35,981 bases of DNA. It comes from a virus (Duplodnaviria > Heunggongvirae > Uroviricota > Caudoviricetes). The first letter of the stretch is position 1. Every line of letters starts with the position of its first letter. The notes beneath the pieces were generated by a model. The model saw only the letters and a program-made list of their open reading frames with translations. It made no database searches and was not told the origin of the DNA. The translations under genes and the position numbers were made by a program. The stretch covers positions 1 through 35,981 of the IMG/VR virus record IMGVR_UViG_2563366990_000012; one strand, 5' to 3'. Shown in pieces: positions 1 through 35,981 of this stretch.

Positions 1-1362
1 ATGTTTAAACCGGAACTCCTTTCCCCGGCGGGAACGCTGAAAAATATGCGTTACGCTTTCGCTTATGGCGCAGATGCTGTTTATGCGGGCCAGCCGCGTT
101 ACTCCCTGCGTGTGCGCAACAACGAATTCAACCACGAAAATCTTCAGCTCGGCATCAATGAAGCCCACGCGCTGGGGAAAAAGTTTTATGTCGTGGTCAA
201 CATTGCACCGCACAACGCCAAGCTGAAAACCTTTATCCGTGACCTGAAACCGGTGGTGGAAATGGGGCCGGATGCGCTGATTATGTCCGATCCAGGGCTG
301 ATTATGCTGGTGCGTGAGCACTTCCCTGAAATGCCGATCCATCTCTCGGTACAGGCTAACGCCGTGAACTGGGCGACGGTGAAATTCTGGCAGCAAATGG
401 GCCTGACCCGCGTGATCCTCTCTCGCGAGCTGTCGCTGGAAGAGATTGAAGAGATCCGCAATCAGGTGCCGGATATGGAGATCGAGATCTTCGTTCACGG
501 TGCGCTGTGCATGGCCTACTCCGGTCGCTGCCTGCTCTCTGGCTATATCAACAAGCGCGACCCGAACCAGGGTACCTGCACCAACGCCTGCCGCTGGGAG
601 TACAACGTCCAGGAAGGGAAAGAAGATGACGTTGGCAACATCGTACACAAGTACGAGCCAATTCCGGTGCAAAATGTTGAGCCGACGCTGGGTATCGGCG
701 CGCCAACCGACAAAGTGTTTATGATCGAAGAAGCCCAGCGTCCGGGCGAGTATATGACCACGTTTGAAGATGAGCACGGCACTTACATCATGAACTCGAA
801 AGATCTGCGCGCCATCGCCCATGTTGAACGCCTGACCAAAATGGGCGTGCATTCGCTGAAAATCGAAGGCCGTACCAAATCTTTCTACTATTGCGCACGC
901 ACCGCGCAGGTTTACCGTAAAGCTATCGATGACGCCGCTGCGGGCAAACCGTTCGATACCAGCCTGCTGGAAACGCTGGAAGGTCTGGCGCATCGTGGCT
1001 ATACCGAAGGTTTCCTGCGTCGTCATACCCACGACGATTATCAGAACTACGAATACGGTTATTCGGTTTCTGACCGCCAGCAGTTTGTTGGTGAGTTTAC
1101 CGGTGAGCGCAAGGGGGAGCTCGCGGCGGTAGCGGTGAAAAATAAATTCTCCGTTGGCGACAGCCTTGAGCTAATGACGCCGCAAGGCAACATTAACTTT
1201 ACCCTTGAGCATATGGAAAACGCCAAAGGTGAAGCAATGCCGGTCGCACCAGGCGATGGTTATACTGTGTGGCTCCCGGTGCCGCAGGATCTCGAACTGA
1301 ATTACGCGCTGCTGATGCGTAATTTCTCCGGTGAAACCACGCGTAACCCCCACGGTAAGTGA
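1..1362 (+). CDS. yegQ: U32-family peptidase-like protein YegQ (23S rRNA 5-hydroxycytidine synthase RlhA), 453 aa
   Basis: Full-length ORF starting MFKPELLSPAGTLKNMRYAFAYGADAV, recognised as E. coli YegQ; the known chromosomal neighbour of cyaR and the P2 locI site. Confidence 0.9.
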   Translation: MFKPELLSPAGTLKNMRYAFAYGADAVYAGQPRYSLRVRNNEFNHENLQLGINEAHALGKKFYVVVNIAPHNAKLKTFIRDLKPVVEMGPDALIMSDPGLIMLVREHFPEMPIHLSVQANAVNWATVKFWQQMGLTRVILSRELSLEEIEEIRNQVPDMEIEIFVHGALCMAYSGRCLLSGYINKRDPNQGTCTNACRWEYNVQEGKEDDVGNIVHKYEPIPVQNVEPTLGIGAPTDKVFMIEEAQRPGEYMTTFEDEHGTYIMNSKDLRAIAHVERLTKMGVHSLKIEGRTKSFYYCARTAQVYRKAIDDAAAGKPFDTSLLETLEGLAHRGYTEGFLRRHTHDDYQNYEYGYSVSDRQQFVGEFTGERKGELAAVAVKNKFSVGDSLELMTPQGNINFTLEHMENAKGEAMPVAPGDGYTVWLPVPQDLELNYALLMRNFSGETTRNPHGK

Positions 1363-1446
1363 TTAATTTCGATTATTTTTCCCGGATGAAAAATTCTTAG
1401 AAACCGATCACATACAGCTGCATTTATTAAGGTTATCATCCGTTTC

Positions 1447-1533
1447 GCTGAAAAACATAACCCATAAAATGCTAGCTGTACCAGGAACCACCTCCTTAGC
1501 CTGTGTAATCTCCCTTACACGGGCTTATTTTTT
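1447..1533 (+). ncRNA. cyaR: CyaR (RyeE) CRP-dependent Hfq-binding sRNA
   Basis: Sequence GCTGAAAAACATAACCCATAAAATGCTAGCTGTACCAGGAACCACCTCCTTAGCC followed by terminator hairpin and T-run matches my recollection of CyaR; lies in the yegQ-ogr intergenic region as in E. coli K-12. The 3' end overlaps the prophage att core. Confidence 0.8.
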
Positions 1534-1534
1534 A
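1507..1534. repeat. Prophage att core, left copy (ogr-proximal, attR-type junction); 28-bp direct repeat AATCTCCCTTACACGGGCTTATTTTTTA
   Basis: Exact 28-bp identity with 34153..34180; flanks read gtAATC.../...TTTAcgcg here versus taAATC.../...TTTAtaca at the right copy. Overlaps the cyaR terminator. Confidence 0.9.
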
Positions 1535-1597
1535 CGCGTAATACAATGAAATAAAAGGATTTATTTCTGGTCACGTCCACACATTGACCACATCGAC

Positions 1598-3098: not shown

Positions 3099-3577
3099 TA
3101 TCCCGCCCCCGTCATACCCGTGAATCTGGTCGCCATACTGCCAGCCTTACCGATGAGCGATTCCGCCTGTTTACCGATATCGCCATAAAGCGCGGCCAGT
3201 GATTCATCAACGCGGGTGAGCGACAGCGTAAAATCAATTTTTCGGGGTGTGCCGTCTGCAAAGAAAATACTTCCTGTTTCACTCACCCTGCTGATGACAT
3301 ACATGCCGTAAATCATGCCGGTGCCATCCAGCAACGGCCACGCCCGGCCTTCCTCTGCCATCAGCCTGAGCGTGGTCATCGTCAGCTTGCCGCCGGTCAG
3401 TTCTGGATAAAGCACACCGGCAAGCGTGATGTTTTCCTCACCCACACCGAGAAACTGGTAGGCGTCCCGTTTACCGATACGGGAATTTGACGGCCAGCGA
3501 TAATCTGATTCACGCTGCATGGTCTGGTGTGGCAGCGTCTGGCGCATAAAAACAAACATACCTAACGCGAGCATCAT
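3098..3577 (-). CDS. U: Tail protein gpU, 159 aa
   Basis: Position between T and D, length matches P2 U; stop overlaps D start. Confidence 0.88.
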   Translation of the reverse strand: MMLALGMFVFMRQTLPHQTMQRESDYRWPSNSRIGKRDAYQFLGVGEENITLAGVLYPELTGGKLTMTTLRLMAEEGRAWPLLDGTGMIYGMYVISRVSETGSIFFADGTPRKIDFTLSLTRVDESLAALYGDIGKQAESLIGKAGSMATRFTGMTGAG

Positions 3578-33059: not shown

Positions 33060-34073
33060 ATGGCAATCAAAAAACTCGATGATGGTCGATATGAAGTGGA
33101 CATCCGCCCTACTGGACGTAACGGAAAACGCATCCGTAGGAAGTTTGATAAGAAAAGCGAAGCTGTCGCTTTCGAAAAATACACGTTGTACAACCACCAC
33201 AATAAAGAATGGCTATCAAAACCAACAGACAAACGACGTCTGTCGGAACTGACACAGATCTGGTGGGATTTAAAGGGTAAACACGAAGAGCATGGGAAAT
33301 CTAATCTTGGAAAAATTGAAATCTTCACAAAAATAACGAATGACCCATGCGCATTTCAAATCACGAAATCCCTTATCAGCCAGTACTGCGCCACCCGAAG
33401 AAGTCAGGGTATTAAACCTTCGAGTATCAATCGTGATTTAACATGTATTAGCGGCATGTTTACAGCCCTGATTGAAGCGGAGTTATTCTTTGGTGAGCAC
33501 CCTATCAGAGGGACAAAGAGGCTTAAGGAGGAAAAACCAGAAACAGGCTATCTCACACAGGAAGAAATTGCCTTACTGCTTGCTGCTCTTGACGGCGACA
33601 ACAAAAAGATTGCGATTCTTTGCCTGAGCACTGGAGCACGTTGGGGAGAAGCAGCTCGTTTGAAAGCAGAAAATATCATCCATAACCGCGTCACGTTTGT
33701 TAAAACGAAAACAAACAAACCACGCACCGTCCCGATCTCAGAGGCTGTTGCCAAAATGATCGCGGATAACAAACGAGGTTTTTTATTCCCTGATGCTGAT
33801 TACCCTCGCTTCAGACGAACAATGAAAGCAATAAAACCGGATTTGCCAATGGGGCAAGCCACACATGCACTAAGGCACAGCTTTGCCACTCATTTCATGA
33901 TTAATGGAGGAAGTATTATCACGCTACAACGGATACTAGGTCACACGCGGATTGAGCAAACTATGGTTTACGCTCATTTTGCGCCAGAGTACCTTCAGGA
34001 CGCCATTTCTCTTAATCCGCTAAGAGGTGGTACTGAGGCCGAGAGTGTCCACACAGTGTCCACAGTAGAGTAA
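33060..34073 (+). CDS. int: P2-type tyrosine integrase, 337 aa
   Basis: C-terminal catalytic region with ...HALRHSFATHFM... and ...LGHTRIEQTMVYAHF... (R-H-R-Y signature); adjacent to the att core. Confidence 0.92.
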   Translation: MAIKKLDDGRYEVDIRPTGRNGKRIRRKFDKKSEAVAFEKYTLYNHHNKEWLSKPTDKRRLSELTQIWWDLKGKHEEHGKSNLGKIEIFTKITNDPCAFQITKSLISQYCATRRSQGIKPSSINRDLTCISGMFTALIEAELFFGEHPIRGTKRLKEEKPETGYLTQEEIALLLAALDGDNKKIAILCLSTGARWGEAARLKAENIIHNRVTFVKTKTNKPRTVPISEAVAKMIADNKRGFLFPDADYPRFRRTMKAIKPDLPMGQATHALRHSFATHFMINGGSIITLQRILGHTRIEQTMVYAHFAPEYLQDAISLNPLRGGTEAESVHTVSTVE

Positions 34074-34152
34074 CGTTTAAGGGCTTTCAGTGGTAATTTA
34101 TGCCGCTCAAACCCGCATTGTACCGTTGAAAGCCCCTACTGGTGACACCCTA

Positions 34153-34180
34153 AATCTCCCTTACACGGGCTTATTTTTTA
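34153..34180. repeat. Prophage att core, right copy (int-proximal, attL-type junction)
   Basis: Exact 28-bp repeat of 1507..1534. Confidence 0.9.
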
Positions 34181-34349
34181 TACATAAACCATAGAGACGG
34201 ATTGATCCCAGGTCACCGTCTTCCATTGACCACATCGATAGAATCTCCCTTCATAGCACGATGCCTTTCACTTATTGGCATCGTGCTCGCACAGGTTCCG
34301 GTTACGCACAGCCAGAACGCGCATGTTTGATGCTTACCAAAAAATATTC

Positions 34350-34667
34350 TCACTCTCCACATTTGAATGTCAGACGAGCGACGCCATGTAATCCTGCACC
34401 TTCTGTCTTCAGGTCAACTATCTGCATTTTTTTGCCCTGAGTAACACAGAAATGAACTGCATCATTTTTTACTATATTTTCTGCACCAGATATTCTACCC
34501 CTGGCTAAAGAAGCTTCGGCTTCGGTGTAGTATTGGTTATCGAGTTTACGCTGAATATTACTTTTATATGCAAGACCAAATTTACCGATACTTGTCTCAT
34601 CATTATGTACAGCACACCCAGACATAAGAAAAACACTAATTAATGATATAGCAGCTATCTTTTTCAT
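34350..34667 (-). CDS. yegR: Small exported protein YegR, 105 aa
   Basis: MKKIAAISLISVFLMSGCAV signal/lipobox-like N-terminus; host neighbour of yegS. Confidence 0.8.
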   Translation of the reverse strand: MKKIAAISLISVFLMSGCAVHNDETSIGKFGLAYKSNIQRKLDNQYYTEAEASLARGRISGAENIVKNDAVHFCVTQGKKMQIVDLKTEGAGLHGVARLTFKCGE

Positions 34668-35081
34668 CTCACCTTCCCCCATTAAATACCAACGACACGC
34701 TCTGGTGTTTAAATATAATAATGGCATGATTATTATAATTGAATAGGATTATAATAAATGTTCTGTACAACATTTCCTACATAAGTAGGAATTACATACA
34801 CGGATGCCCTTCCAGGTAACCCCATGGGGGGGTTAATATATTTTTAATAGTATATTGAAGATGCCACTGTTTAGTTGAATATTAGGTATATGTTCTTTTT
34901 TGAAATTTACCGGTGGCTACCGTTAATATTCGCTGTTCCCATTGCAAGCTCCTGGTGGTAACCACTGAATCCTCCATACTTGAACTGACTTTTTATCCTC
35001 CGACTTTCATCCTGTTCTGACTCCACCTTTTCTTTTCTGCTCTACACTATCTACAGTCCAATCATAAAGGCACATACGATC

Positions 35082-35981
35082 ATGGCAGAATTTCCCGCCA
35101 GCTTACTGATTCTTAATGGCAAAAGTACTGACAATCTACCCTTGCGCGAAGCAATTATGCTGTTGCGTGAGGAAGGAATGACGATCCATGTGCGGGTCAC
35201 CTGGGAGAAAGGCGATGCCGCACGATATGTAGAGGAGGCACGGAAGTTGGGCGTCGCAACGGTGATTGCCGGTAGTGGCGATGGCACCATTAATGAAGTT
35301 TCTACGGCGTTGATTCAGTGTGAGGGGGATGACATACCCGCGCTGGGAATTTTACCATTAGGAACCGCCAATGATTTTGCCACCAGTGTAGGGATTCCTG
35401 AGGCACTGGATAAGGCGCTGAAACTGGCAATTGCCGGTAACGCCATTGCGATAGATATGGCGCAGGTCAATAAACAAACCTGTTTTATTAATATGGCGAC
35501 AGGCGGGTTTGGGACGCGTATTACCACAGAAACGCCGGAAAAATTAAAAGCCGCGCTGGGTGGCGTCTCTTACATCATTCATGGCTTAATGCGCATGGAC
35601 ACTCTGCAACCGGACCGTTGTGAAATCCGCGGTGAAAACTTTCACTGGCAAGGTGACGCCCTGGTCATTGGTATTGGTAACGGGCGTCAGGCCGGTGGCG
35701 GTCAACAATTGTGCCCGAACGCGTTAATTAACGATGGCTTGCTGCAACTGCGCATTTTTACCGGCGATGAAATTATTCCGACTCTCGTATCAACCTTAAA
35801 ATCTGACGAAGATAACCCGAATATTATCGAAGGAGCTTCGTCGTGGTTTGATATACAAGCCCCACACGAAATCACTTTTAATCTTGATGGCGAACCGTTG
35901 AGTGGGCAAAACTTCCATATTGAAATACTTCCGGCGGCGTTGCGTTGTCGATTACCACCAGATTGTCCATTGTTGCGTTAA
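35082..35981 (+). CDS. yegS: Lipid kinase YegS (DAG-kinase-like fold), 299 aa
   Basis: [15 protein letters not shown]... with GGDGT-type motif ([11 protein letters not shown]); full length. Confidence 0.9.

Follow-up and report, generated by a model that had tools for sequence, protein, structure and literature searches.

Prophage remnants at attachment (att) sites are already known, and one of them is the ogr-D' remnant of Escherichia coli K-12 at cyaR. Going by the title of their 1992 paper, Barreiro and Haggard-Ljungquist reportedly described a cryptic P2 remnant (ogrK and a truncated gene D, yegZ) at this site in K-12. In streptococci, the CIME-type elements that lie beside ICEs are att-flanked, decayed integrative elements associated with site-specific accretion. 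The attachment sequences of P2 itself provide a second point of reference. [quoted passage not shown] Such repeats are a general Int-binding motif of P2-type integrases, independent of the core site, and for function of P2 attB the core alone has been described as sufficient (PMC3448106). The P2-type ogr-proximal arm has the layout GAAATAAAAGGATTTATTTC...GTCCACACATTGACCACA.

Here we compare with these systems a block of ~815 bp that lies between cyaR and yegS in E. coli and contains the gene yegR. On comparative evidence we consider positions 34180-34994 of the sequence analysed to be, with a probability of roughly 0.8, the fossil of a P2-type integrated element that has become fixed in E. coli, 34180-34239 being what would remain of its ogr-proximal arm. 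This is an ordinary kind of feature and involves no new mechanism. Full-text literature searches, whose reach did not extend to the 1992 paper by Barreiro and Haggard-Ljungquist, returned no description of the yegR block as an att-bounded fossil.

The window, by which we mean the whole 35,981-nucleotide stretch that was analysed (IMG/VR record IMGVR_UViG_2563366990_000012), includes a P2-like prophage that fills the interval between two copies of the 27-nt P2 core, AATCTCCCTTACACGGGCTTATTTTTT, at 1507-1533 and 34153-34179 (Table 1). The ogr gene adjoins the left core and int (33060-34073) the right core. The terminator of cyaR overlaps the P2 core in the window sequence, such that the left copy doubles as the 3' half and U-tract of the CyaR terminator. 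On the plus strand the resident ogr-proximal arm has two Int arm-type repeats, CGTCCACA at 1574-1581 and TGACCACA at 1585-1592, which on the minus strand read TGTGGACG (1574-1581) and TGTGGTCA (1585-1592).

Table 1. Positions of host, prophage and putative fossil features, counted from the first nucleotide of the window.
Feature	Position	Strand	Remarks
yegQ (trhP)	1-1362		
cyaR (CyaR/RyeE sRNA)	1445..1530	+	Rfam RF00112, 100.7 bits, E 3.5e-19
Core copy 1, ogr-proximal junction of resident prophage	1507..1533	+	27/27, direct repeat
ogr-proximal attP arm of resident P2-like prophage	1534..1597	+	block conserved in 36-39 unique P2-type arms
int-proximal arm repeats of resident prophage, TGTCCACA x2	34046..34064	+	conserved in 23 int-proximal arms
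Core copy 2, int-proximal junction of resident prophage	34153..34179	+	27/27, direct repeat
Probable fossil ogr-proximal arm	34180..34239	+	45/60 identical to 1534-1597
AATCTCCCTT	34242..34251	+	exact copy of core positions 1-10; 12/5000 shuffles give a shared word that long
Perfect 11-bp hairpin: AGCACGATGCC, 11-nt loop, GGCATCGTGCT	34255..34287	.	-24.7 / -23.3 kcal/mol, z -4.7 / -4.6
yegR, 105-aa predicted lipoprotein (lipobox LMSGC)	34350..34667	-	sole gene inside the probable fossil; GC ~31-38%
Probable fossil int-proximal arm stub, TTCCCATTGCAAGCTCCTGGTGGTAACCACTG	34936..34967, ~33 nt	+	compare GTACCGTTGAAAGCCCCTACTGGTGACACCCTA at 34120-34152
Decayed distal core, AATCCTCCATACTTGAACTGACTTTTT	34968..34994	+	18/27; abuts ancestral yegS upstream sequence
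Ancestral cyaR-yegS spacer	34995..35081	+	homologous to post-core DNA in island-free species
yegS (lipid kinase), host gene	35082..35981	+	

The flank immediately to the right of the right-hand core resembles the ogr-proximal arm, as a sequence-only reading of the window had proposed; both of the strings that it quoted are present at their positions, and the pairwise alignment that had been set beforehand as the test goes far beyond chance. When 34180-34239 is globally aligned to the resident arm (1534-1597) the two are in register with 45 of 60 positions identical, a score that none of 3000 shuffles reaches, and the homology spans the full 60 nt from the core through CATCGA. When the 107 nt that follow the left core are aligned locally to the 170 nt that follow the right core, the score is 38, against 15.4 +/- 2.3 for dinucleotide shuffles (0/5000 reach 38), and the same score is reached by none of 758 real windows of this sequence. 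A repeat search of the window finds the pair as an ungapped direct repeat of 54 nt with 70% identity (1557-1610 and 34199-34252), only 4 nt off the register of the 27-nt core repeat. Similarly, a profile made from 36 independent P2-type ogr-proximal arms has its hit in the flank at that position (E ~6e-4 when the island is searched, ~1 when scaled to 5 Mb). A search for homology between the right-hand flank and the phage arm beyond these 60 nt found none. The similarity is not part of the att duplication of the resident prophage itself, an explanation against which the sequence-only reading had warned.

One Int arm-type repeat is intact in the flank, TGACCACA at 34227-34234 (TGTGGTCA on the minus strand); it lies 48 nt from the core and matches the tgTGGaCa consensus at 7/8 positions. 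The second repeat, the counterpart of CGTCCACA, has been destroyed and reads CGTCTTC at ~34217-34223 (GAAGACG on the minus strand), and the A/T-rich block GAAATAAAAGGATTTATTTC is partly retained as GACGGATTGATCCC, most of the block having been lost. A functional arm has at least two direct arm-type repeats beside the core and the flank has one that is intact; most likely, therefore, it is now inert DNA and not a working arm. Co-option of the arm, in which TGACCACA, at a near-native distance from the core, would bind the N-terminal domain of P2 Int and influence use of the site, strikes us as improbable. Such an arm could aid site preference or modulate excision, given that the int-proximal junction resembles a weak attP. 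The repeat itself is close to consensus and a 14-nt sequence, ATTGACCACATCGA, is invariant in all of the E. coli flank variants seen while the neighbouring spacer takes deletions; however, E. coli diversity is too low for this invariance to be a sign of selection, the other repeat and most of the A/T-rich block are gone, and P2 attB is described as needing the core alone (PMC3448106).

Comparison with 50,697 phage records by blastn identified only two matches to 34181-34349, ON470606.1 and AY639599.1, both of which include host flank; hence, at the sensitivity of blastn, there is no free phage arm among these records that is closer to the relic than that of P2. ON470606.1 is a prophage deposit that continues past the attachment core through yegR, yegS and a DeoR-family repressor gene (gatR) (L216 2898-5802), and AY639599.1 extends beyond the core into host flank with part of yegR.

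The segment 34100-34700 is present in 5419/5426 complete E. coli genomes, and most of the matches start exactly at the core. At the unoccupied sites of O157:H7 F8952, 5283, 097H6 and LS4 the cyaR core is followed by the arm-like flank, yegR and yegS in that order. The relic is not peculiar to this strain and forms the normal right flank in nearly all E. coli, empty sites included. There is next to no probability left for a recent, strain-specific remnant of the kind represented by ogrK/yegZ in K-12, or for a chance resemblance: these drew on the initial resemblance and nothing more, chance is refuted by the shuffle and real-sequence controls, and a strain-specific origin by the occurrence of the flank in ~99.9% of complete E. 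coli genomes, also where the site is empty.

Most E. coli strains lack 12-16 nt of the arm relic; the long form seen in the window occurs in 143 of the 5426 genomes, and another long form, ATGCATAAGCTGTAAATACGGATTGATCCCTGGTCACC, shares 48/60 positions with the P2 arm. The longer variants are closer to the phage arm than the common form with the 12-16-nt deletion, which is the pattern expected of a decaying copy. Two other variants concern the flank. In LS4 (L005 ~1700-1870) an AT-rich insertion of ~170 nt, which follows CTTACCAAAAAAT, separates the hairpin region from the yegR stop codon, and the same two-piece match is seen in a sizeable subset of E. coli genomes. At the empty site of 097H6 (L004 1488-1500), the phage version ACGCGTAA replaces ATGCATAA over the 8 nt next to the core and precedes the ordinary short host flank; this variant is also found in four IMG/VR contigs. 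In strains with ACGCGTAA the similarity of attP and attB extends 8 nt beyond the 27-nt core, and exchange with an earlier prophage may have left its mark at some empty sites.

In K-12 (J53) the cyaR core is followed by a full P2 arm, ogrK, a truncated D, the partial core TACACGGGCTTATTTTTT, the arm-like flank and yegR, in this order. The flank lies to the right of the ogrK-D' remnant, so that two generations of relic stand side by side in this strain; the equivalence that had been suggested between the relic and the K-12 ogrK/yegZ remnant does not hold, since K-12 possesses both. The remnant of J53 ends in a hybrid junction (L001 2440-2480; window ~2135-2160) at which gene D continues through GGAGAACTCTGC and is followed by core positions 10-27 (TACACGGGCTTATTTTTT). 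By eye, the D interior at this junction, GAACTCCGCAACGCCCCGTT, matches the core at ~10/20 positions, which means that the K-12 deletion may have used a pseudo-core or microhomology.

The far boundary of the block was located with an outgroup sample of 80 yegQ loci, one from each of 80 species of Enterobacteriaceae, among which 77 have a recognisable core. At 46 of these 77 loci yegS starts within 150 nt of the cyaR core; island-free loci include those of Escherichia sp. E1V33, Klebsiella, Kosakonia and Citrobacter amalonaticus. The interval between core and yegS is ~881-902 nt in E. coli and the additional ~815 bp (34180-34994) are situated exactly at the core boundary. Ancestral DNA resumes at 34995 (ATCCTCCGACTTTCATCCTGTTCTGAC...) in the outgroup alignment, which thereby fixes both boundaries of an insertion that is absent from the orthologous site in 46/77 loci. 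The relic continues past 34349, and the outgroup comparison places its far boundary at 34994. The age of the insertion is only loosely bounded by this sample, whose Escherichia loci include those of E1V33 and E. albertii.

Citrobacter, Enterobacter, Trabulsiella and Scandinavium have prophages in which a P2-type ogr arm with the same blocks of conserved sequence lies next to cyaR, and the blocks recur in 36-39 unique viral contigs. Since the flank is absent from the outgroups and the arm is conserved in phages of several genera, the arm is a phage property and the E. coli flank a copy. Homology alone gives no direction, and the reverse would be that the P2 ogr-proximal arm was itself copied, through aberrant excision, from E. 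coli DNA downstream of cyaR. We regard this as very improbable: the orthologous site lacks the flank in 46 other species, another Escherichia included, several genera without the flank have P2-type prophages in which the arm is conserved, the arm repeats are a general Int-binding motif whatever the core site (PMC3448106), and the host copy is the degenerate one. Together, the arm alignment and the outgroup genomes support the earlier suggestion that the site once held an older P2-like element, now almost entirely deleted. The companion suggestion, that the present prophage inserted into the surviving core, is also supported. At cyaR the core does not differ from that of attP, with 27/27 matches both at unoccupied E. 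coli sites and at the two junctions of this window.

Enterobacteriaceae have an insertion hot spot at the 3' end of cyaR: 31/77 loci of the sample (L006-L085) hold an insert at the core. The inserts occupy the first 100-4400 nt after the cyaR core and several have decayed distal cores. Among them, a block of 625-633 nt recurs in six loci titled Enterobacter (L006, L064, L069, L074, L079, L081), and blocks of 0.75-0.83 kb follow the core in Kluyvera. At the island-bearing loci of other genera, distal cores are found 78-88 nt from the yegS ATG and match at 16-25/27 positions.

Direct copies of the core bound the E. coli block, the proximal copy at 27/27 and the distal copy, at the ancestral boundary, at 18/27. 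The distal copy (34968-34994) is 88 nt from the yegS ATG, the position of the distal core in E. albertii. When both strands of the window are searched for core matches of at least 18/27 there are four, namely the two true cores, 34968-34994 and a chance site at 3555. A 60-nt alignment to the phage int arm and core, anchored at the boundary, has 39/59 identical positions and a score of 19, against -9.4 +/- 4.1 in shuffles, none of which reaches 19 in 20000. A profile of 23 int arms has its best match in the island in the exact register of the stub, at an E value of 0.27 that is not significant alone, and the score obtained by unconstrained local alignment is reached by 121/5000 shuffles; the stub counts only because it is in the correct register. 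Further to the left of the stub, comparison with the resident prophage did not detect int-arm homology. The decayed core and the int-arm stub abut ancestral DNA at 34994, and this places yegR inside the fossil.

The DNA between the two stubs provides no sign of phage genes. The interior (34240-34935) is without DNA or protein similarity to the resident prophage, a search for residual P2 genes (int, ogr, D and others) found none between the stubs, and tblastn of Int together with blastx of the island against all resident-prophage ORFs produced nothing better than E ~1. Its description as a 'P2-like phage' is consequently carried by the att arms only, and any element with a P2-type int/att module would leave identical scars. 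GC content is 0.31-0.39 in the island compared with 0.44-0.55 in yegS.

yegR is almost confined to E. coli and occurs in none of the 80 Enterobacteriaceae yegQ loci. Relatives of YegR, which are 45-82% identical, are found in unrelated surroundings, chromosomal or IS-associated, and none has a P2 context; the distant homologues are flanked by IS in Enterobacter, or lie beside mug/fdn, glsA/nfsB or MerR loci. For this reason yegR is unproven as phage cargo, and its sequence context is compatible with its being either cargo of the ancient element or a later arrival. Comparison of the island with the surroundings of YegR homologues detected no DNA similarity, and YegR was not found in genuine phage genomes. 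YegR matches the PHROG family phrog_21109 (E 6e-72), a match that we set aside as probably derived from over-extended prophage records, and three apparent homologues of 76-88% identity proved to be error-ridden assemblies of the same E. coli locus. A Pfam scan of YegR returned nothing above threshold; precomputed tables list PF27694 YegR. In metagenome and NCBI contigs (L210-L213; gene at 3001-3318 in L210), homologues of 76-82% identity lie between glutaminase and nitroreductase/ivy genes and are always trailed by an unannotated ORF of 108-110 aa, which is absent from E. coli yegR.

Closer to the arm relic, the string AGAATCTCCCTTCA, which had been taken for a degenerate partial core, does represent a true core fragment of 10 nt, but it probably does not mark the far end of the insertion as a whole. 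The copy (AATCTCCCTT) stops at 10 nt, with 15/27 matches by eye across the full core length, and it is polymorphic among E. coli, with AATCCTCCTT in its place in K-12-type strains. A model with a single insertion event leaves the fragment at 34242 unexplained; AGAATCTCCCTTCA/AATCTCCCTT may have arisen by chance, or it may be a middle core between two fossils laid down in succession. Tandem accretion of two fossils would require that an older element left the core, the yegR segment, the int stub and the distal core, and that a second P2-type phage then entered the cyaR-proximal core and suffered a deletion from just past its ogr arm to its int-proximal core, of which only AATCTCCCTT (34242-34251) would survive. 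A copy of the left half of the core directly after the arm relic is unlikely by chance (12/5000 shuffles), and the tandem arrangement, a new element to the left of an old relic, exists both in the window and in K-12. Nonetheless, we think it rather unlikely that there were two fossils: beyond the 10-mer, which itself varies among E. coli, the core is unrecognisable (the ~15/27 by eye), the sequence after it is not arm-like, and at least two extra deletions are needed. We rejected the idea that AATCTCCCTT and the adjacent CATAGC form a hybrid core from Int recombination with a secondary site, because the left neighbour is the ogr arm, whereas such a product would need either cyaR or an int arm there.

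The hairpin at 34255-34287 occupies the place where phage arms have the ogr terminator. It lacks a U-tract on both strands and lies ~60 nt past the yegR stop codon. In E. coli it is single-copy, with a stem that is mostly kept and a loop that varies by strain (TTTCACTTATT vs TTTCACGTAAC).

Returning to the preferred reading, that of a single P2-type fossil, we infer integration, deletion and differential decay from comparative anatomy. In an ancestor of E. coli, a P2-type Int would have recombined the phage core with the CyaR terminator, producing the arrangement cyaR-core / ogr arm ... int arm / core-yegS. One or more internal deletions would then have taken out all recognisable phage genes, so that the arms were cut down to ~60 nt on the ogr-proximal side and ~33 nt on the int-proximal side, where the distal core also remained; between the arms there would be a low-GC segment of ~700 bp in which yegR is either cargo or a later arrival. 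The distal core, no longer part of a gene, would have drifted to 18/27, whereas the cyaR-proximal core would have stayed at 27/27 because it is the CyaR terminator, and being still perfect it would still serve as attB. Finally, present-day P2-like phages, among them the prophage seen here and the phage from which the K-12 ogrK-D' remnant descends, would have integrated in the proximal core and so pushed the fossil to the int-proximal side. Only a small probability attaches to the fossil being active today, whether (a) through the surviving repeat, which might favour the cyaR site or tune excision, or (b) through recombination of the 18/27 distal core with the proximal one. Barreiro and Haggard-Ljungquist (1992) are said to have found secondary P2 sites in use at 17-20/27 matches. 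Were the distal core to recombine, the resident P2 could at times take the yegR block with it on excision, and the fossil would be a cis-mobilisable cargo cassette.

On the preferred reading, the textbook 'empty' P2 integration site would be cyaR plus an ~815-bp prophage fossil that encloses the orphan gene yegR. A stretch of 'core' E. coli chromosome would thus be re-labelled and the origin of yegR placed in context. The calling of prophage boundaries at cyaR is affected, since phage records and a PHROG family include yegR through over-extension, and with three cores in tandem the att-site repeats at this locus need careful interpretation. The locus would also exemplify a core within an sRNA terminator that stays usable while its twin decays.

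A parallel relic is present at the cyaR-yegS site of E. albertii NBRC 107761 (L008 6534-9902). This is att-bounded, 3.3 kb long and contains cdtA-cdtB-cdtC (by Pfam, CDtoxinA, Exo_endo_phos and CDtoxinA). Its P2 ogr arm is cut within the first repeat and ~75 nt of int arm remain at the other end. The distal core, 88 nt before yegS, matches the relic's own proximal core at 25/27 positions and has 4 mismatches to the core of the window.

Compared with the ogr-proximal arm of P2 attP, the fossil arm has the same position, the same spacing from the core and one intact tgTGGaCa-type repeat; it differs in having its second repeat destroyed and part or all of the A/T-rich block deleted, and in lacking the ogr terminator that phages have after the arm. 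Like a CIME-type element, the fossil is a gene-poor, att-flanked remnant beside a functional att site, where a newcomer adjoins it to give a tandem array of three cores. The likeness is one of architecture, three cores in tandem, the partners here being a P2-type phage and its fossil and the distal core being heavily decayed (18/27). The K-12 remnant has the same integration site and orientation, is likewise a P2-type element reduced through internal deletion, and lies between a perfect cyaR core and a damaged one. Unlike the fossil, it is young, close to the resident phage, present in some strains only, and retains ogr and part of D; the fossil has no phage gene, only arm stubs of 60 nt and 33 nt at ~66-75% identity, is fixed across E. 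coli, and within K-12 lies to the right of the remnant. The cdtABC island of E. albertii shares with the fossil a cyaR core, a truncated P2-type ogr arm, cargo without phage genes, an int-proximal arm stub and a degenerate distal core 88 nt before yegS, although it is better preserved and larger, and has a toxin operon instead of yegR. It appears to be an independent insertion, and it is the same architecture at an earlier stage of decay. A decay series can thus be read at one site, from the intact prophage through K-12 ogrK-D' and the E. albertii cdtABC island to what is probably its last stage, the yegR island of E. coli.
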